Source of the DNA: Haloquadratum walsbyi C23
GTDB lineage: Archaea; Halobacteriota; Halobacteria; Halobacteriales; Haloferacaceae
Direction: 5' to 3'
DNA: 32,000 nt
NCBI RefSeq assembly: GCF_000237865.1
Contig: NC_017459.1
Location: forward strand, 1,020,001 to 1,052,000
The notes under the pieces are model-generated. The model was not told the origin of the DNA. It did no database searches and saw only the letters and a list, made by a program, of their open reading frames with translations. The stretch's first letter is position 1; each line of letters starts with the position of its first letter. The position numbers and the translations under genes were made by a program. Below are positions 1-31,178 of the stretch, piece by piece.

Positions 1-425
1 AAATAAATATACTGACTGCTGGCGGTAATTACGGCTGGCCAATTGCAGATGAAAGTTGCCAGTACGGGAGTGATGAACCGATTGGTGTCTCACACGGTGA
101 CCGAGAGGATGTAATCGCACCAGTGTATTCATGGCCATGTGGAAGTGGTGGATTTCCGCCAAGTGGTATGGCGTTTTATGATGCTGAAACAGCCAGCAAA
201 TCTCGTGGTATTGTGGGGTGGCAGGGAGATCTTTTCGTTGGTGGATTAGCCTCACAGTCACTCGCGCGGTTCCGTATTGACAATCAACAGATTGAATTAA
301 TTGATCATCTTCTCACGAATCGTGGATGGCGCATTCGTGCTGTTTCTGCCGCTCCGGATACCGGAGCAATATATGCAGTAATTGACTCAGATGATGCAGA
401 ACTGATTCGGCTTGTGTCTGCTTGA
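1..425 (+). CDS. PQQ-dependent sugar (glucose/sorbosone) dehydrogenase family protein, C-terminal part; the 5' end lies outside the window
   Basis: Frame 3 is open from the window edge to TGA at 423-425. The translation ..ILTAGGNYGWPIADESCQYGSDEPIG.. carries the GGNYGWP motif typical of soluble PQQ sugar dehydrogenases. The tracked ORF 123..425 is only its tail. Confidence 0.7.
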   Translation, partial: INILTAGGNYGWPIADESCQYGSDEPIGVSHGDREDVIAPVYSWPCGSGGFPPSGMAFYDAETASKSRGIVGWQGDLFVGGLASQSLARFRIDNQQIELIDHLLTNRGWRIRAVSAAPDTGAIYAVIDSDDAELIRLVSA

Positions 426-426
426 T

Positions 427-1050
427 ATCCTCCTCCACGTTTAGTGATTCGACAAACTTCTGGGTGAACTGATTCACTAAATCGATGCGAGAGAACTATT
501 CTGACTGATGTATGTCTAGTTAAGCACCCACTTCTTCTGTGAACTACTACACGCGGAGGAATTCCACGGCACCACACGCACCGCTGAGTTGGGAGTTTCA
601 GGTGCAGGTTCACAGGCTGCCGAACTCACACGCCGTGCGAACCAGTGTGCGGTCGAGGAACGGACAGCCTCTTTGAATTGGGAGTATCACAGCTTAAATC
701 ACGGTACTCCTATCTTCACCCGAAAACGCGCTCCTGTGTTAGTTTCCCCACAGGAGCGGTGGTCGGTGGTCAGTGGTCAGTGGTCGGTTTCACCAGACTC
801 AGAGTTACTCACGTCAACGCTCGCCCGGTGCTTATTCTTTGTTTCCCACATGGGGCACACTCTGCTTCCAGCGTGGGCGGACACTCATACTTGAACCGCC
901 ACCTTTCGGGCGCTTGGCTACAGTGGGATCATAGTCAGTGCGCCGACAGTTATATATACATCATGTTTCGACCGTTCGGGAACCCCCGGCTGCGACGGCG
1001 CGTGTCCACGGTCTGAGACTATGTGGTATTGTACCTGTATTAGCTATAAT
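427..1050 (+). repeat. Type B GC-rich non-coding element, copy B1. Its 5' hairpin arms (431-439 and 552-560) are separated by about 110 nt.
   Basis: Shares ordered boxes with 9815-10353, 12300-12660 and 30646-31178: ATCCTCCTCC start, ACGGCACC..TTGGGAGT, GGTACTCCTAT, CCACATGGGGCACAC..GCGTGGGCGGACACTCA..AACCGCCAC, and a 3' box GACGGCGCGTGTCCACG..TGTGGTATTGTACCTGT. It starts immediately after TTGAT (422-426). Confidence 0.75.
758..785. repeat. Heptamer tandem repeat (RGTGGTC) x4 inside copy B1
   Basis: ggtggtc ggtggtc agtggtc agtggtc, read directly. The homologous site in copy B2 (about 10060-10075) has fewer units. Confidence 0.8.
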
Positions 1051-5570: not shown

Positions 5571-6463
5571 TATCTTATATATCTGATAGACAAGTAAAAA
5601 ACTATTCTCTTTGTGATTTATTGTTAAATTATGGCTAAATGATTCAATGCGTGCTCACGTATTGTTTAGTATCAAACATAATGTAATATAATTGTGATTT
5701 GTCTCGGGATTAAGCCCCGTGGCAGTTGGTTTATATCGGATGTAAACATCAAGATGATTCATAAAACAACTGTAATGCTTGGAGAACACATATGATATTA
5801 AATACATATCGACAGAAGTATTTAGCGCTGATTATGAAACATGTGATATTATTATAATTAAACACATCATCATATCAATCCTGTCACTATCTGTGCAATT
5901 CGATTAAAATCTTATAACATACGTACTGTCGTTATTCCACCGTATAGAATGGACATCACGGATATTAACTGAAATAAATGAAACGTCTGGTCAAAAAATG
6001 GTATGAACATCTAATTTCGGGTAGAATTTATATATTATATCATGAAAATTAATATGAGATTCAGATGTGAATGTTATATCTATCCCTTAATCTATTATAT
6101 TTATGCAACTATCGAGGAAATAGCGAAAAATCCATGGGTCGCCCGATCTGTGGTCGTTTACTGCAATTTCATATCTAATGTGGTGGAGGAAAATCTGACA
6201 CATCGGAATAGACAGTCACGGAAAATAAACTCATAGTGATTACTTCGAATAGTTTCACTGACAGTGTCGAATGACGCGGGTTCAGCGGCTCCCATCGCCG
6301 ACACGGATAATCACGGCGGTAAAGACTTGCACTAATTACTATCAGTCGGTTACCCTCTCAGCATTCACAAAAGCGACCTTCCCACACAGTTAATTAGATA
6401 TCAAAGAGTCTTAACGATGTGAATATCCCACCACCACGCTCTAAACGAAAAGCAGCGCGAGTT

Positions 6464-6855
6464 CCCCGCCCCACCGTGGGCGGGGGTGAAGCTCGTACGC
6501 TCGGCTGCGTCCCATTTTTTTACTATCGGGACGCCCTACTATAGTTTGGAACCCACGTTATCGGCCTCGCAAAACCCGCGCACCCATTTTGGGGTAAGAC
6601 GCTGTGCGCCGGGTCTGTATCGCGCCCATGTGAAGGGGCGGACGCCCACGGACACGCCCGCCACGGCAGCAACAGACGACCTCTGTTGCGGTGGCACTTT
6701 TGGTGTGTTCGGGTGTTACTGGTTCCACGCGAGTCTCGCCAGAGACGAGCGCGGGCGGAATTAAAATTCGCCACCGGTCGTTTCGCTGGCTTCCCGCCAG
6801 AGACCACGGCGAAGCCACGGGCCACCGCGCCCGTGGTACTTCACATGGGTAACGG
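6464..6855 (+). repeat. Type A GC-rich hairpin-bounded non-coding element, copy A1
   Basis: 5' hairpin ccccgccc-caccgt-gggcgggg (6464-6485) followed by GTGAAGC. The 3' module is TTCGGGTGTTA, a stem-loop, GGAATTAAAATTCGCC, GAAGCC plus hairpin ccacggg-ccaccgcg-cccgtgg (6815-6836), then TACTTCACATGGGTAAC. This matches 29550-29718. A sampled line at 6601-6660 is about 73 percent GC, against about 23 percent at 5581-5640. Confidence 0.7.
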
Positions 6856-9668: not shown

Positions 9669-9766
9669 GTGCTTCTCGCGGATTTCGACTCTCTTCACCT
9701 ATTGGTAGTTTTCGCTTCAAACTTGAGATTCACGTATTAATCGGATCGTATAAAAAACAACTTGAC

Positions 9767-9795
9767 ATTTTCCCCGCCCTGAAGGGGTGATTTAA
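9767..9795 (+). repeat. Solo 5'-end hairpin remnant of a type B element
   Basis: cTTGAC|attttccccgccctgaaggggtga aligns with tTTGAC|atcctctccgccctgaagggcgaaga at 12295-12325. The rest of the element is missing. Confidence 0.55.
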
Positions 9796-9814
9796 TACAT
9801 GCAAGTTCTTTAAT

Positions 9815-10353
9815 ATCCTCCTCCGGCTGAAGCCGGGAGGAATCCTACGGCACCGCACCGCTTCGCTGGGTTGGGAGTGTCAGCTTTGGATTTGGGTTTG
9901 AGTTTGGGTTTGGGTTTGCAGACTCCCAATACCAAGCCAGTCCACCGTCGGAATCGGTGTGTGACCGGTCACTGGGCAATCTCCAGGGAGTGCCACATCT
10001 CAGCCCCCGGTACTCCTATGCTCAACCGAGGTGAAGTCCCTGTATTGTTTTTTCCACAGGGGCTTCGGTCAGTGGTCGGCACTCGGGTTCACCGGACTCG
10101 GAGTTACTTGTATTGGTGACGAGAGCCCGACGGTTGTTGTTTGATCCCCACATGGGGCACACCCTGTTTCCAGCGTGGGCGGACACTCACACTCAAACCG
10201 CCACTTTTCGGGCACTCGGCTACATCGGGGTCAGAGCCAATACGACAATACTAGTACATACGCCGTTGTCAAAAAGCGGTTGGAAACCACAGTATGACGG
10301 CGCGTATCCATGCCGTGAACAGGTGTGGTATTGCGCCTGTACCATCTATACTA
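9815..10353 (+). repeat. Type B GC-rich non-coding element, copy B2 (the most complete copy)
   Basis: 5' hairpin cctccggc-tgaa-gccgggagg followed by GGAATCC. All family boxes are present and it is preceded by TTAAT (9810-9814). About 100 nt (10147-10235) are nearly identical to 846-935. Confidence 0.8.
9885..9920. repeat. Hexamer microsatellite (TTTGRR) x6 inside copy B2
   Basis: tttgga tttggg tttgag tttggg tttggg tttgca. It is enclosed by an 8-bp helix, ttgggagt (9871-9878) with actcccaa (9922-9929). Confidence 0.85.
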
Positions 10354-12094: not shown

Positions 12095-12299
12095 ACCCTA
12101 GCGTCGCTGGACGCATATATTATAACTTATATGACCTGCATATATCAGTCTGTACGGGTATAAGTAACATAATGACGACAGCGAAAAAAATCCTGCTTTA
12201 GGCGTTAATTATGAGTTCAGGCGACCTTCGAGAGCAGAGAAACTAGTGCAACTTAATTAAGCCACAGTTGCTTCATGAGCGTCCGCGCCTATATTTGAC

Positions 12300-12660
12300 A
12301 TCCTCTCCGCCCTGAAGGGCGAAGATTCCCACGGCACCGCGCCGCTGGATTGGGATGTTCAAGGTTTGTAGCCGCCTCGATGACGGCTCCTGGCTGTGCC
12401 AGCCAGCCGTTACTCCTATTCCGGCATGGGATTCGGAGGTACTTCTTACTGCACCCTGAGTTCCACAACAGAAAGGGGTGCTTTCTGCATGGAATCGGGG
12501 AATCCCGATATTGTCCGATTAGTGGGGCGGGTAGACCGCCTCGGTTATGTATCGATACGGCATCTCGTCAGTTAACCCATCCGTTCGACACGTCGAACGT
12601 GGTTCACGCAGGGGTTGTCGGATTCATCCCCGCCGTGTGGTGCTCCTGAAAACTTATTGA
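12300..12660 (+). repeat. Type B element, short rearranged variant (copy B3)
   Basis: Preceded by TTGAC (12295-12299). 5' hairpin tctccgccc-tgaa-gggcgaaga followed by GATTCC, then CACGGCACCGC..GGATTGGGATG, GTTACTCCTAT, and a 3' end GTGTGGTGCTCCTGAAAAC. It lacks the CCACATGGGGCACAC block. Confidence 0.6.
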
Positions 12661-13400
12661 GGAATTCAATCCAAAATCTTGTTATAGAGTAGCTGCTGAT
12701 ACCATTGCGTAGGACCTGTGATTCAAAATGTTTCACGGAGTACTAAACGGCGGGGCTTTCTCCTCGCACCGCCGTAAGCACGGGTCTTACCTGTGGAACT
12801 CTCGCTGTGTTGTTCAGAATAAATCTGTATTGTGACGTCTATTCTGCTTAATTTTGCATGTGATCAGCTTGCTCACTCAAAACGGATTAGCAATTAACGG
12901 GCACTTACCCTGTCCTCAAGCAATAAACTAACTGGAAGCGGGTGGCAGAGGCAGTCCGCTGAGAAGTACTTACTCGACCTGAAATGGATTTCGACTCTTG
13001 AGTTTTCAACGTTCGGCAATCACTGACCACATATCACGGCGACACAGTTCCTGATAGTCTCATGTTCCGGTTTGACAATTTTATATAGCGTTATTTGATT
13101 TATATATTGAATTTGATCATCAACTATCCCTCCAACTATATCGAATCTGTCTGGAGGTGATAACTTTAGTACCTAAGAGGCGCTAAGTCTCTGTCCTCAA
13201 GGGAAGAGCGAAGCGAGTGAGTAGGGTGGGAATACAGCGCCGTCATCACGCTATCATACAGTTCAACCAGTATATGTACTATCTTGTGTGCTTTCTGTGT
13301 TCCACACGATGCTCGCCACATTTTCAACAGTGTTCGAGTGCGACACAAAACACGTACTGATGGGTATGGTGGAGTGGCTATCCATGAGTGGGACACTTCG

Positions 13401-13541
13401 AACCACGCGTGAAGGGAACTCGCCTGTGAAGTCTGGAATTTCTGTGCCCTCATTATGATTCTGACATCGAAGCAGGAAATACCGTCCCCAACAAATGAGG
13501 GGCGAGCAGAGCCCCGAGCGTGGTAGGGCAGGGTAGTTCAC
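13401..13541 (+). repeat. Possible degenerate type A 3' module (A3)
   Basis: The order ccacgcg..ctcgcc..ggaatttctgtgcc..hairpin ggggc-gagcaga-gcccc..tagttcac parallels A1 (ccacgcg..ctcgcc..ggaattaaaattcgcc..hairpin..tacttcac). Similarity is weak. Confidence 0.3.
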
Positions 13542-14265: not shown

Positions 14266-15130
14266 TATTAGATGTTATCTGGACGAGATGCGTGTTCGGG
14301 ATGTATCATCAAATAATTTATGTAATATCACTATCAAGAAGTATATCTGTGTAATCTTATTGATTGATAACTTGCGGTAGACACCTATGTATACTTTTTC
14401 TCTAGTATGTGAATATACATCTTCATGCCACTGAACCCTACCCACATTATTACGGGAGCATGACCCTCAAAGCTCGAATCAGCGGGTCTATACTGAGTTT
14501 CCTTTCGCAATAGTGCATCAAGAGACGTCAGAAGTGAAGTACCTGGGGAAAAGTCCCTCAAGACACTCGCCTCGATCATTTATAGATGAGTTATCATTAC
14601 AAACGGCGAGCTTTCTCGGACGTATTTCAGTGATTCGGGACTGAGATTACAGAGAACCAGGGAGAAAGTCTCTCGACTGAAACACAAGGATATCGGCATT
14701 TTATATCACTGTTAGGAGCAATCGATTCATGCAGTAATGAATAAAAAAATATACTGCCCGATTTCAGCGCTTATTATGATCTATGCTTACTCGATAGTAC
14801 AGCTTTAGAGCGAGAAGTGTTGATGCGACCAGTTCATTATAGATAATAAGATTCTCTGTCATAAACTGTATATCGCGATATCAATTTGACCCGATCAGTC
14901 ATTGAGACTGATCTTCTCAATGCGTACGGATCCGACACCGTAGATGTTGATTTCTTCGCAGAGAAACTCCCGATCAGTTGAGTTCAATTTTCAATTTGAG
15001 TGCGTGGTGTATCTTAGCAATTGTTGAGTCGGCAAGACTATTATTCATCAAATAGATTCATTCCTTTACAGACACGAGTGAAAAAAGAAGTTCTGGAGCT
15101 TGATCCTGAAGCAGTTCACTCACCATTACA

Positions 15131-27638: not shown

Positions 27639-27820
27639 TTCCTCGCTTGAATCAGGATTCTCTCTCAAAAATCGAGTCTATCTTTCTGCAAGGAGAGAAT
27701 CCCGCCGTTTTCCACGGGAGTAAATCCGATACTTCCCACACAATCCACCGTTGATGGCAGGCTAGATGTTCAACGCTAATCCACATCATTAAACAATTCT
27801 ACAGATTAACAGGCAGAGTG

Positions 27821-27899
27821 CCTCGGGGCTTGACCCCGAGGGTGAATGCCGTCACTATATGCCACAAATTTAATTATTTCTAGCGTTTCATACGGTGAC
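27821..27899 (+). repeat. Type A element copy A2, left part (interrupted by the IS4-family element)
   Basis: Hairpin cctcggggcttgaccccgagg (27821-27841) followed by GTGAATGC. The same 21-mer recurs at 29679-29699. Confidence 0.65.
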
Positions 27900-29409
27900 C
27901 TGTCGCGTTCTAAGTTCATAAAGCCCGGCGAAATTCTCTCCTAACGAACTGCTGGGTAAGAATCGTATGGGAGTTCACTCATCGAACAGTTGTCGGTGAA
28001 ATCCGTGTTGAGCCAAGAGAAGTAGCAGTTCAGGGAAAGAAATGATCAATGATCGCGGCACAGGCGACAGCCGTCGCTGGTGGGTGACGGCTGTCGCCGG
28101 GAAGTGAAGATTGATTAGCCGAATGAATCTAGCGTCTCATTCCAGAAGGTTCGAACTTTCTGGATAGCACGCGCCACGCCACCCCTGACTGGGTGGCGTT
28201 GGCGAAACCATACGACCAGCATATATCCAATCAATGCACAGAACAGCTCGAATAACACGCCGTTCAGCGATTTCGAGTGAAAGTTCTCGATGTTGAGGTA
28301 CTGTTTCCACTCTCGGAAGAGGATCTCAATTACTGTCCGTAGTGTGTATATGTTGATCACGTCGATTGGATCGTACTCTGACGACGCCAGCGTCGTCAGG
28401 TACTCAATCTCTTCTCCATCGGGTGTTTCCAGCACAATCCTGCGGAACTCTTCACCAGTCTCAGCTAATTCAATTCGTTCATCACGAACCCGTCGCGTTG
28501 ATTCCTCATCTGAGTGAGTCGGCTGAGCGGCGTTGTTCCCTGAGACGGTGACCTCGAACTCTTCGAGTGTCTCAATGAGTTCAAATCGAGCGTCTGAGTG
28601 CATCAGTGTGACAAAATCATTGTCACTATGCTTGATCTCACAGAACCGTAGATATCGCGTGTATGCGCGGTCAAAGACCCAGATTACCGAGTCGAGGTCT
28701 GCAAAGACCTCGACATCTTCCTTGAGGAGATCGAACTGCGGGCTTTCGTGGGTGTCGCCCTCTGTAACAGTAGCGTCGAGTGGATGTTTATTTTCTCCAT
28801 CCACACGTGCTGCGCAGTGAAGTTCGAGACCACCATCGTCTGTGTCGATCTTGTAGACCTTGTCGTCGTCTCCGACGAACTCGTCTGAGACGACAACAGA
28901 GCGCGTAAGTTCGAGGTTTGTGGCATCAACAGCGACGACATCTCGTGTCATCCACTGCAGTCGTTTTCGTTGAACTCCACGTTGATGATACAACTGTGGT
29001 GTGTGCAGTACTTCGAAGAGGAGCTGAACGACCGCGCAGTAGTCGCGGTCGTTCGTGAGTTCTGAAAACCGTGATTTAGGCATGTGTTCGAGTGAGTCGT
29101 CGACAATGGTCTTATCCTCAAGTTCAGCGAGTGAGCTGGAGGGGTCAAGACCCTCACGAACAGCCGTCTTGACGTGGTTCGTGAAGTCGTGTTTGTCGGA
29201 ATGGAGCCCAATCTTGAATTCATCGGCAATCGACTCGCTGTCGACTTCGTCGAGCAGCGAGTACATTTCGTCAGCGACGAGATCAGTAGAATTGATATTA
29301 GAGGCGTCCGTTACGTCTTCTGACGGCCTGTTTGGTGAATCAAATTGCACAGACATTACGGGCCGTCACTAACGGCTCACGCCGTTTTTATATACTCAGA
29401 ACGCGACAG
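27900..29409 (-). mobile_element. Intact IS4-family insertion sequence (1510 bp) with a 9-bp target site duplication
   Basis: Terminal inverted repeats CTGTCGCGTTCTAAGT (27900-27915) and the reverse complement of 29394-29409 (CTGTCGCGTTCTGAGT). Direct repeat TACGGTGAC at 27891-27899 and 29410-29418. Confidence 0.85.
28115..29356 (-). CDS. IS4-family DDE transposase
   Basis: 413 aa with D regions VVAVDATNL and VIWVFDRAY, and the IS4 signature Y(2)R(3)E(6)K in YTLRTVIEILFREWK. Confidence 0.85.
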   Translation of the reverse strand: MSVQFDSPNRPSEDVTDASNINSTDLVADEMYSLLDEVDSESIADEFKIGLHSDKHDFTNHVKTAVREGLDPSSSLAELEDKTIVDDSLEHMPKSRFSELTNDRDYCAVVQLLFEVLHTPQLYHQRGVQRKRLQWMTRDVVAVDATNLELTRSVVVSDEFVGDDDKVYKIDTDDGGLELHCAARVDGENKHPLDATVTEGDTHESPQFDLLKEDVEVFADLDSVIWVFDRAYTRYLRFCEIKHSDNDFVTLMHSDARFELIETLEEFEVTVSGNNAAQPTHSDEESTRRVRDERIELAETGEEFRRIVLETPDGEEIEYLTTLASSEYDPIDVINIYTLRTVIEILFREWKQYLNIENFHSKSLNGVLFELFCALIGYMLVVWFRQRHPVRGGVARAIQKVRTFWNETLDSFG

Positions 29410-29718
29410 TACGGTGACAACGACCAGACACAACCCATCAAAGTATGGAAATGAAGATCTCATTTCCTTCGCTGGTCGTTTGACAGTTTGGAAATGTGGC
29501 CCCTCTCAAAATCCGCTACTATGGTGGTGCGACGGGGGTTTCAACGGGCGGAGTGAAGCCGCCGACCTCCACGGACTCCTCGCGGAGTTCGGGTGTTAAT
29601 TCCAGCCGACCCCTCACGGGGAAGGTCGGAGGGAATTAAATTCGCCTGCGGGTGCTGTGCAGACCCCAAACGGTGAAGCCTCGGGGCTTGACCCCGAGGT
29701 ACTTCACCTGGATAACCC
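29410..29718 (+). repeat. Type A element copy A2, right part including the conserved 3' module
   Basis: TTCGGGTGTTA, stem-loop ccgacc-cccctcacgggg-aa-ggtcgg, GGAATTAAATTCGCC, GAAGCC plus hairpin (29679-29699), TACTTCACCTGGATAAC. Collinear with 6700-6855. Confidence 0.7.
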
Positions 29719-29768
29719 GTGTATGGCGATTCAGGTCACTCGCACCTGAACGCACCCCGCGGTAGACG

Positions 29769-30030
29769 ACTGTCTCTTACCCACAAATCGAGTCAGTGTT
29801 TTAGCGGAACGTGATCGGGATCGGCGAGCACGACTGAAATTCTCGGTATCTACAGTTTCAACACCTTTTTGAAACAATTGTAGTGGAGTTGATTACCGGC
29901 GTTCTGTCACCCCCACAGCCGGTATCACTGTCTGAGTCGCTTCTCGCTTCGATTTTTTACGTTCAAAATACCTCTGAGAGCGTCTGAAACGTCCGGTTAC
30001 GACTCCACGAACTTATGGGTAAAAGACAGT
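29769..30030. repeat. 262-bp element bounded by 18-bp inverted repeats (candidate MITE)
   Basis: ACTGTCTCTTACCCACAA (29769-29786) against the reverse complement of 30013-30030 (ACTGTCTTTTACCCATAA), 16 of 18 identical. There is an internal palindrome gtttcaa..ttgaaac at 29855-29875. Confidence 0.5.
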
Positions 30031-30155
30031 GTATGCGGGGAGGATGTCACACACAGGTATACTTCCTCGATATCCTCCCAACAGAATCTTCTTTCCAGTG
30101 CTTGGTGAATCGGCGAGTATTTTTATACCATACACGTGAGTGATGATGAAGAGAG

Positions 30156-30638: not shown

Positions 30639-30645
30639 TCTTGGC

Positions 30646-31178
30646 ATCCTTCTCCGCGTGAGTGCGAAGGAATCCCGGAGCGTGAGTGATGGAGATCGCA
30701 GGGTTGCAGTCTCATCAGGTATCCAGATGGTGAGAATCCGTCCGGACTTCTGGACCGTGGCGAGTGGGGATGGACTGCTGGGAGTGCCACATCTCAGCTC
30801 TCGATACTCCTCTCCTCAATCATATCTACACTCCCGAAGTTGTTTGTGCCTTTGGAGGGGGCTGGCAGACTTCGACGGACTTGGGTTTACATTTTGATAT
30901 TTAGAGTAGTCAAGCACAGCATCGATTCAGTATCAGAACCGACCGTTCATATGACTGGCTCCGATTATCGTCCCATTGCTCGGAGCGGACAGAACTTCAC
31001 CGTCGGACGGGGTGGGAATCGCTCTACTCTCGCCTGATTCCTACTTTGTCAATATGTTGCCTGTCTACTCCATAGCACTCAAATCTCAGTTTAGCTGCAT
31101 CACGTGGATAGGTTCCCACGTGACGGCGCATATCCACGACTCGAAGACCGTGGTATTGTGCCTGTCCATCATATAATA
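30646..31178 (+). repeat. Type B GC-rich non-coding element, copy B4
   Basis: Begins 8 nt after the folA stop and is preceded by TTGGC (30641-30645). 5' hairpin ccttc-tc-cgc-gtgagt-gcg-gaagg followed by GAATCC. Contains GGGAGTGCCACATCTCAGC..GATACTCCTC (nearly identical to 9986-10018) and a 3' box GACGGCGCATATCCACG..CGTGGTATTGTGCCTGT. Confidence 0.7.

Follow-up and report, generated by a model that had tools for sequence, protein, structure and literature searches.

Palindrome-associated transposable elements (PATEs) have been catalogued in Haloquadratum walsbyi as six families of non-coding sequences, which are without inverted repeats or target duplications and carry near-terminal palindromes akin to those of IS605-type transposons (Dyall-Smith et al. 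2011, PLoS One 6:e20968, PMC3119063). The HqIRS56 family (532-574 bp) has the termini 5'-TTATA TGCTGAGCAGGCGCAATACCACG...GGAGGAGGATGTCAA-3' and HqIRS54 the termini 5'-TTAC GGCGGTGCGAGG...GGCGGAGGGGATGTCAA-3' (PMC3119063, Table S9); the wider HqIRS56 group reaches ~80 copies per genome, with lengths of 466-688 bp, and HqIRS54 elements measure 370-381 bp (PMC3119063). Here we consider a stretch of 32,000 nucleotides from H. walsbyi C23 (NC_017459.1, positions 1,020,001 to 1,052,000; hereafter the window), in which an initial annotation had described a "type B" set of GC-rich non-coding elements, comprising four copies, referred to below by the start positions given there (427, 9815, 12300 and 30646), and a solo end. 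This set consists of three HqIRS56-type PATEs, one HqIRS54-type PATE and one solo right end, and the element family is thus one that is already known and catalogued in H. walsbyi. The favoured explanation as a whole, to which we assign a probability of about 0.88, is that these PATEs are gene-less members of the IS200/IS605 family that would be mobilized by TnpA in trans and would carry a stand-alone guide-RNA gene for use by TnpB, likewise in trans.

The identification follows from the agreement of the copies with the published HqIRS56 and HqIRS54 termini, and from the presence of exact HqIRS44 and HqIRS46 elements in the same window (Table 1). In reverse complement, copy 30646 is identical to the published HqIRS56 5' end at 47 of 56 positions, and copy 12300 agrees with HqIRS54 at 48 of 50 positions of the 3' end and, at the 5' end, over the first 32 bases. 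Divergence is greater in copies 427 and 9815, which can nevertheless be aligned throughout. The organism group, the termini, the size range and the lack of open reading frames (ORFs), inverted repeats and duplications are all as in the described elements, the difference being that HqIRS56 proper is more than 90% identical, whereas the window copies are "heterogeneous", diverged members. The window's DHFR gene is encoded identically in H. walsbyi HBSQ001 (AM180088.1), where the surrounding DNA is 96-99% identical.

The class proposed by the initial annotation, namely ORF-less, non-autonomous elements of the IS200/IS605 type with subterminal hairpins and neither inverted repeats nor duplications, is upheld. 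The window copies are 479-624 bp long and have no coding capacity, as the ORFs that run across them are GC-rich artefacts. Subterminal imperfect hairpins are present at both ends of every copy, no terminal inverted repeats link the two ends, and the filled and empty alleles described below differ without any duplication. A tblastn search of the window with 22 TnpB proteins of the family gave nothing at E<0.01; neither TnpA nor TnpB is encoded there, as had been stated earlier, and the full-length relatives that share these ends carry tnpB rather than a DDE transposase. The sequence boxes reported as common to the four copies and the solo end were recovered at their places: the motif ATCCTYYYCS occurs 6 times against 0.88 expected (none of 100 shuffles reached 6), and the 3' motif GTGGTATTGYRCCTGT has 3 exact occurrences against 0.73 expected at up to 3 mismatches. 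A profile for which only ORF-less copies of other genera were used matches the minus strand at 30641-31176 over its full length (profile positions 1-520, E 2.5e-49), at 9810-10107 (E 5e-17) and 10287-10350 (E 2e-12), and at 548-807 (E 2e-08) and 994-1049 (E 2e-06). The copies thus exist as reported, with extents that differ from those first given, the boundaries of copies 427, 9815 and 30646 in Table 1 having been set by the empty-site rule explained below. Copy 12300, which had been ended at 12660 and counted in the same family with a "3' box", lacks that box and reaches to 12773, its left end being split by an insertion of ~108 nt.

The orientation of these elements becomes apparent from their relatives. 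A degenerate pattern of the "3' box" retrieved at least 120 loci in many genera of Halobacteria, plus one chance bacterial hit, and the similarity among these loci ends directly after TATAA. The 53 complete elements obtained from other Halobacteria fall into two main size classes, with 29 that lack an ORF (351-624 bp, of which 22 have 506-538 bp) and 23 of 1456-1584 bp, and there is one further element of 987 bp. The long elements (1.46-1.58 kb) have the same two ends and were found in 12 other named haloarchaeal genera, so that the suggested check for a full-length relative yielded elements carrying tnpB only. An ORF of 418-458 amino acids, on the strand opposite to that on which the elements had been read, is present in 22 of these 23; the one such ORF that was scanned contains the OrfB_IS605 and Cas12f1-like TNB domains that define it as an IS1341-type TnpB. 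The tnpB gene starts ~100 nt from the "3' box" and stops (...CKP*, reverse complement of TTAGGGTTTGCAG) ~50 nt away from the hairpin TTGAC followed by ATCCTCCTCCGC...GCGGAGGAATCC, which had been taken as the 5' end. This strand and position of tnpB make the "3' box" the left end and the ATCCTCC hairpin the right end; the earlier anatomy had been read on the strand opposite to tnpB and the guide RNA. The ORF-less element also occurs in 65 haloarchaeal replicons among plasmid records, which hardly ever annotate it; its identity between genera reaches 95%. A viral scan returned no member of the family. Several ORF-less copies (L033, L042, L016 and L030) bear an extra palindromic insert of ~55 nt (e.g. 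GTCGTTCGAAAATCGGAGATTTTCGTGATCACGAGAGATACAGTCTCTCGGAC) at two internal positions (alignment A2, columns ~190-320 and ~520-580), which looks like a tiny mobile hairpin.

On the tnpB-sense strand, which is the minus strand for all type B copies, the element starts with A(C/G)GCTGAAC and ends with GGAGGAGGATGTCAA. Its left end forms a long imperfect hairpin, GGCGC-AATA-CCACGGCC...GGCCGTGG-ATAC-GCGCC, and its right end forms a hairpin that is followed ten bases later by the last bases of the element, GTCAA. Comparison of profiles shows that positions 1-100 of the ORF-less form correspond to the left end and the tnpB 5' untranslated region of the tnpB elements, and that positions ~330-515 are the counterpart of the final 170-195 nt of those elements. 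It is within this latter region that a known RNA family was matched: Rfam sot0042 (RF02656) aligns over its full model to window positions 12304-12444 on the minus strand (69 bits, E 7e-16), where HgcC (RF00062) is a weaker second match (32 bits), and, again over the full model and on the tnpB-sense strand, to the Halorubrum copy L090 (55 bits, E 1.6e-13). This RNA was described in Halobacterium salinarum as a sense-overlapping transcript (sotRNA) of an IS1341-type tnpB (Gomes-Filho et al. 2015, PMC4615843). The sot0042-like region shares with it the full-model alignment, the tnpB-sense strand and the terminal hairpin, and differs in that the RNA gene here is without an overlapping tnpB ORF. 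As this region occupies the right end, is homologous to the terminal part of the tnpB elements and stops at the element boundary, the right third of the PATEs is best explained as encoding a predicted TnpB guide RNA (omega RNA). PATEs often encode omega RNAs, and ORF-less derivatives that keep the guide RNA have been noted in G. stearothermophilus (10.1101/2023.03.14.532601). The original description of the H. walsbyi PATEs predates omega RNA, and describes neither guide-RNA content nor conservation of the ORF-less form across genera (PMC3119063).

Between these two shared regions lies a segment specific to the PATE form (alignment A3, columns ~100-295, e.g. L090:6480-6680; window ~30860-31070). 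Variation is lowest in this segment when 20 ORF-less copies from 11 named genera and two metagenome-assembled genomes are aligned (mean column identity of 84% over the alignment). The helices predicted for it are 94.7% paired, compensatory changes affect four pairs of one hairpin, and near-invariant G-U pairs favour the tnpB-sense strand. Folding energies fail to distinguish the strands, and the segment has no match in Rfam. A conserved GTTTAAG box, a candidate archaeal promoter, stands in front of the segment. Two subfamilies can be distinguished by this core: subfamily 1, the pan-haloarchaeal ORF-less form, includes copy 30646, while subfamily 2, with a different core, includes copies 427 and 9815 and the loci L081 and L010, and is also found in Halovenus and a Natrialbaceae genome. 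The conserved PATE-specific RNA core may be a new side result of this analysis.

The best surviving of the rival explanations, though an unlikely one, is that the copies are decayed tnpB pseudogenes, i.e. internal-deletion remnants of IS1341-type elements that have no RNA function of their own. Repeat-mediated core deletions have indeed been described to turn IS605-type transposons into PATEs (PMC3119063), weak tblastn traces of the TnpB C-terminus occur in some PATEs (E 0.002-0.07), and the window copies look degraded. On the other hand, the ORF-less form is of nearly fixed length across 14 named genera, as in the 22 of 29 copies counted above, and retains the 84% mean column identity; its best conserved ~230 nt are unlike the tnpB elements and contain a helix with compensatory changes, and the second subfamily is likewise conserved across genera. 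Random deletions would not produce a pattern of fixed length, a conserved core unrelated to tnpB and a second conserved subfamily. Going beyond the favoured explanation, we tentatively entertain, as a possibility held at less than even odds, that the ~0.5-kb ORF-less form is a horizontally spreading guide-RNA-only lineage. Such a lineage would be a stand-alone omega-RNA gene with its own promoter (the conserved TTTAAG box ~25 nt upstream of the core) and an extra, conserved, structured RNA domain of ~200 nt, would hold its size within 506-538 bp across at least 14 named genera, would use TnpA and TnpB in trans, and would spare host genes that end in TAA by supplying T-TGA-C as a replacement stop.

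The precise boundaries of the elements could be set only with the help of empty sites, since TTGAC, on the plus strand of the window, and TATAA are both nearly invariant: TTGAC precedes the hairpin in 51 of the 53 complete elements and TATAA/TTATA is present at all 53. Three independent empty sites are available. The first is a near-isogenic pair in Natrinema thermotolerans, where the empty allele reads ...GCCGGCGC/ATAAACGGG (the slash marks the insertion point) and the filled allele ...GCCGGCGC[TTGACATCC...CAGCCT]ATAAACGGG (outer brackets enclose the insert). With codons indicated, strain DSM 11552 and two further assemblies have the empty form ...GAG TAC GCC GGC GCA TAA ACGGGTTTCGAGG, and strain A29 the filled form ...GAG TAC GCC GGC GC[TTGACATCC...517 bp...CAGCCT]ATAAACGGGTTTCGAGG; the insert begins with TTGAC and stops before ATAA, and no duplication is seen. 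An element of the family is thus present or absent among strains of one species. The second is a gene for a DUF7474 protein in Halorubrum, with the empty allele CAT ATA TAA CGCGGAGCC (or CGCGGAGCCGCC) and the filled allele CAT TT[TTGAC...GCGT]ATAA CCTCGGAGCC (or CCTCGGAGCCGCC). A terminal phenylalanine of the kind that the insertion creates is found in 0 of 120 DUF7474 homologues, the closest of which end in leucine, as a native TTA TAA predicts. The third is the insertion of a copy into another tnpB (locus L104), where the reading frame of the homologue and the residues GANNLVA are restored only if the four bases ATAA are counted as native. Among the fetched loci, a BLAST search with joined flanks turned up a single pair from different genera (L104 and L069), which was ambiguous until the 4-nt target had been recognized.

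Taken together, these alleles show that, in relatives of the window copies, the element inserts exactly 3' of TTAT on the tnpB-sense strand without target duplication. GTCAA is the terminal motif encoded by the element and TTGAC its reverse complement, not a target. The pentamer TTGAY, regarded by the initial annotation as the flanking target, is therefore the element's own first five bases as read on the plus strand, the real target TTAT lies beside the "3' box", and the analogy with the ISDra2 target TTGAT is a coincidence of letters. The published targeting sequence of HqIRS56 is also modified, as TTATA was listed in PMC3119063 whereas at the empty sites host DNA contributes TTAT only and the fifth base belongs to the element. 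Two observations touch these loci. In Halosimplex halobium (L104:4843-5362) the 515-bp PATE lies inside the RuvC-I region of an unrelated tnpB, a case of one mobile element targeting another, and a tandem repeat of ~23 nt (GCTGCTCGGTACGCGGTTTGGTG) just past the PATE site downstream of moaA varies in copy number among N. thermotolerans strains (L148/L149/L141).

The geometry of the initial annotation, in which the elements are read on the plus strand, insert 3' of TTGAY, and have the ATCCTCC hairpin as left end and the GACGGCGC box as right end, has two facts in its favour: the near-invariance of TTGAC before the hairpin, and the apparently native use of this pentamer by genes. In 78 scanned matches to the hairpin motif, the TGA of TTGAC serves as the stop codon of 16 ORFs with at least 100 codons, so that at least 16 ORFs behave as if the pentamer were host sequence; they include genes for MoaA, MgtC/SapB, BioB, a HEAT-repeat protein and a DUF7474 protein, and at least 6 are clearly real. 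The near-isogenic empty sites, however, lack TTGAC and keep ATAA, with the DUF7474 empty site retaining TATAA beside the homologous right flank, and the homologues of that protein are without the phenylalanine codon that the pentamer would supply. Furthermore, as the other strand carries tnpB and sot0042, this geometry would deprive TnpB of a constant motif beside its target. The coincidence with stop codons is itself accounted for by a swap: the complement of the target, ATAA, holds a TAA stop, and T-TGA-C supplies a new in-frame stop one base later, so that insertion does not alter the length of a gene whose stop lies on the target, the sole effect on its last codon being an A to T change at the third base. 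Many genes therefore end in the pentamer because the TGA of the element replaces the TAA of ATAA. The same explanation applies in the window to a GSDH gene, which enters at the window start and has its stop in the TGA of TTGAT (423-425). For the family, the plus-strand geometry is refuted by the N. thermotolerans and DUF7474 alleles, and we regard it as very improbable; the stop-codon swap at insertion sites may represent a new side result.

Least probable of all is that the copies are miniature inverted-repeat transposable elements of a DDE transposon or belong to another structured RNA family (group I or II introns, IStron remnants), since, despite their GC-rich, structured, non-coding bodies and the DDE transposase within the window, they have no terminal inverted repeats or duplication, the DDE element has its own repeats and duplication and is unrelated, no intron or ribozyme of Rfam matched two copies at E<=10, and their ends are not intron-like. 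HEARO/IsrB RNA, group I/II introns and IStrons were likewise rejected as candidates for lack of matches and because of wrong boundaries.

Several points weigh against the explanation of the window copies as IS200/IS605-type PATEs with a guide-RNA module. The ~230 nt at positions ~100-330 of the ORF-less form have no counterpart in the tnpB elements. Both sot0042 scores (69 and 55 bits) fall under the Rfam gathering score of 88, and copies 9815, 427 and 30646 are without an Rfam match at E<=1; at gathering thresholds Rfam finds nothing in the whole window, and permissive scans of copy 9815 gave chance hits only. A motif search detected no tnpA with these ends in any fetched locus, and Haloquadratum has almost no intact tnpA, yet its PATEs are polymorphic between strains (PMC3119063). 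Finally, the suggested search for empty sites succeeded for relatives and gave none for any window copy, so that mobility is seen only in relatives. All 8 contigs with the neighbouring DHFR gene (DHFR-MsrA contigs) contain copy 30646, with no empty allele among them, and for copies 9815 and 427 no empty allele was obtained as the surrounding contigs break inside repeats. Two metagenome scans for joined flanks of the window copies found nothing, plasmid searches with two flanked copies revealed no empty allele, and three proteins that flank window copies have no database record.

By analogy with IS608, ISDra2 and ISGst elements, mobilization of the PATEs would involve a Y1 transposase, TnpA, encoded elsewhere, that would excise and insert the top strand as single-stranded DNA. 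The only IS200-type ORF encountered in the fetched loci (L066) lies elsewhere in its locus, neither within nor adjoining an element, and as no tnpA with these ends was found we infer the transposase. The guide RNA of the element would read out of its right end into the flank, which would supply the guide, and would be loaded into a TnpB made elsewhere; this TnpB might then cut the vacated site (TTAT followed by the flank), and repair would restore the element. The PATEs share with IS608, ISDra2 and ISGst2 the order of target motif, left hairpin, body, guide RNA, right hairpin and a terminal motif ~10 nt further on, as well as the absence of a duplication. The terminal motif of IS608 is TCAA, comparable to (G)TCAA here. 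They differ in their target, which is TTAT instead of TTAC or TTGAT, in the absence of a linked tnpA, and in the conserved ~230-nt segment that the ORF-less form adds to what is found in the tnpB form. The motifs called TAM (adjacent to the transposon) and TEM (encoded in it) have been defined for such elements, and the TEM of ISGst2, TTCAC, is likewise comparable to (G)TCAA (10.1101/2023.03.14.532601).

Table 1. Mobile elements, their parts and related sites; coordinates are window positions, and L-numbers denote fetched loci.
Feature	Position	Strand	Remarks
HqIRS56-type PATE, copy 9815	9810..10347	-	538 bp; subfamily 2; profile search, empty-site rule
Left-end hairpin of copy 9815	~10287-10347	-	
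Guide-RNA-like right third of copy 9815	9810-10107	-	
Decayed terminal motif of copy 9815	9810-9814	-	ATTAA
Flanking target position of copy 9815	10348..10351	-	reads GTAT; consensus TTAT
HqIRS56-type PATE, copy 427	422..1045	-	624 bp; subfamily 2; terminal motif ATCAA (TTGAT 422-426 on +)
Flanking target of copy 427	reverse complement of 1046-1049		TTAT
Foreign insertion, right-end hairpin loop of copy 427	440..551	.	~112 nt; resembles SMR-A
HqIRS56-type PATE, copy 30646	30641..31172	-	532 bp; subfamily 1; terminal motif GCCAA; full-length match to pan-haloarchaeal ORF-less element including PATE-specific core
Flanking target of copy 30646	reverse complement of 31173-31176		TTAT
HqIRS54-type PATE, copy 12300	12295..12773	-	terminal motif GTCAA; right end of same class, left end different
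Flanking target of HqIRS54-type copy	reverse complement of 12774-12777		TTAC
Insertion, left-end hairpin loop of HqIRS54-type copy	~12638..12745	.	~108 nt; inverted termini GTGCTCCTGAAAC / GTTTCACGGAGTAC; limits uncertain by few bases
Solo right end	9762..9796	-	hairpin remnant, then GTCAA (TTGAC 9762-9766 on +); resembles HqIRS54-type right end in Table S9
HqIRS44 PATE	6440-6844	+	published termini 51/51 and 36/36; island of 60% G+C in AT-rich stretch
HqIRS46 PATE	27798-29707	+	published termini 56/56 and 37/37
ISH8-type DDE insertion sequence	27900-29409		1.5 kb; within HqIRS46 PATE; transposase 28115-29356
Stop-codon swap loci	L141 vs L148-L150; L111 vs L147; window 420-426		

The window copies, in which the target position, terminal motif or hairpins (among them mismatched left-end stems) are off consensus or which are split by insertions of ~110 nt, are most likely old, largely immobile relics. 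Copy 9815, with two mismatches in its left-end stem and both target and terminal motifs off consensus, is probably an immobile relic. It also shows an expansion of GGGTTT/GAGTTT hexamers at 9889-9918, where the tnpB elements hold the remnant of the tnpB stop (GGGTTTGCAG). SMR-A elements (~110 bp) are reported to insert into the near-terminal palindromes of PATEs (PMC3119063), and the two insertions listed in Table 1, which strike hairpins in the same manner, are consistent with SMR-A repeats. The two are unrelated to each other, only the second having clear inverted termini, and no further copy of either was found within the window or the fetched loci. The five type B copies do point the same way, as had been reported, for which the chance is ~1/16; this does not extend to the other PATEs of the window, as HqIRS44 and HqIRS46 lie on the other strand, and the window thus lends no support to the strand-bias argument in its general form.

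Further mobile elements are found around these copies. The ISH8-type element within the HqIRS46 PATE has inverted ends at 27900-27922 and 29387-29409 with a duplication of ~9 bp, and is missing from the same site in H. walsbyi HBSQ001. A segment of ~280 nt (window 29767-30050; also L123:1700-2013 and L126:200-515) ends in a right-end-like GGGGAGGATGTCAC on the plus strand and occurs in three Haloquadratum contigs with three upstream partners, namely the HqIRS46 3' end, a truncated HqIRS56-like left end and another left-end type, an arrangement suggestive of PATE mosaics or recombinants. Right-end-like termini ending in TTCAC, of the HqIRS71/44/46 class, lie at 13532-13541 (plus strand) and 14534-14543 (minus strand), and suggest more IS605-type remnants between 13.2 and 14.6 kb.

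These results explain several GC-rich non-coding islands of the window as catalogued mobile elements, and correct their strand, boundaries and target motif, which matters for their annotation. The motif predicted for the matching TnpB nucleases is TTAT, and this bears on the prediction of both their motif and their guide. In a wider sense, gene-less IS605 derivatives with a guide-RNA module are conserved in size and sequence over many haloarchaeal genera. If their RNAs are functional trans-acting guide RNAs, these PATEs would be natural instances of guide-only mobile elements, relying on a TnpB from another source.

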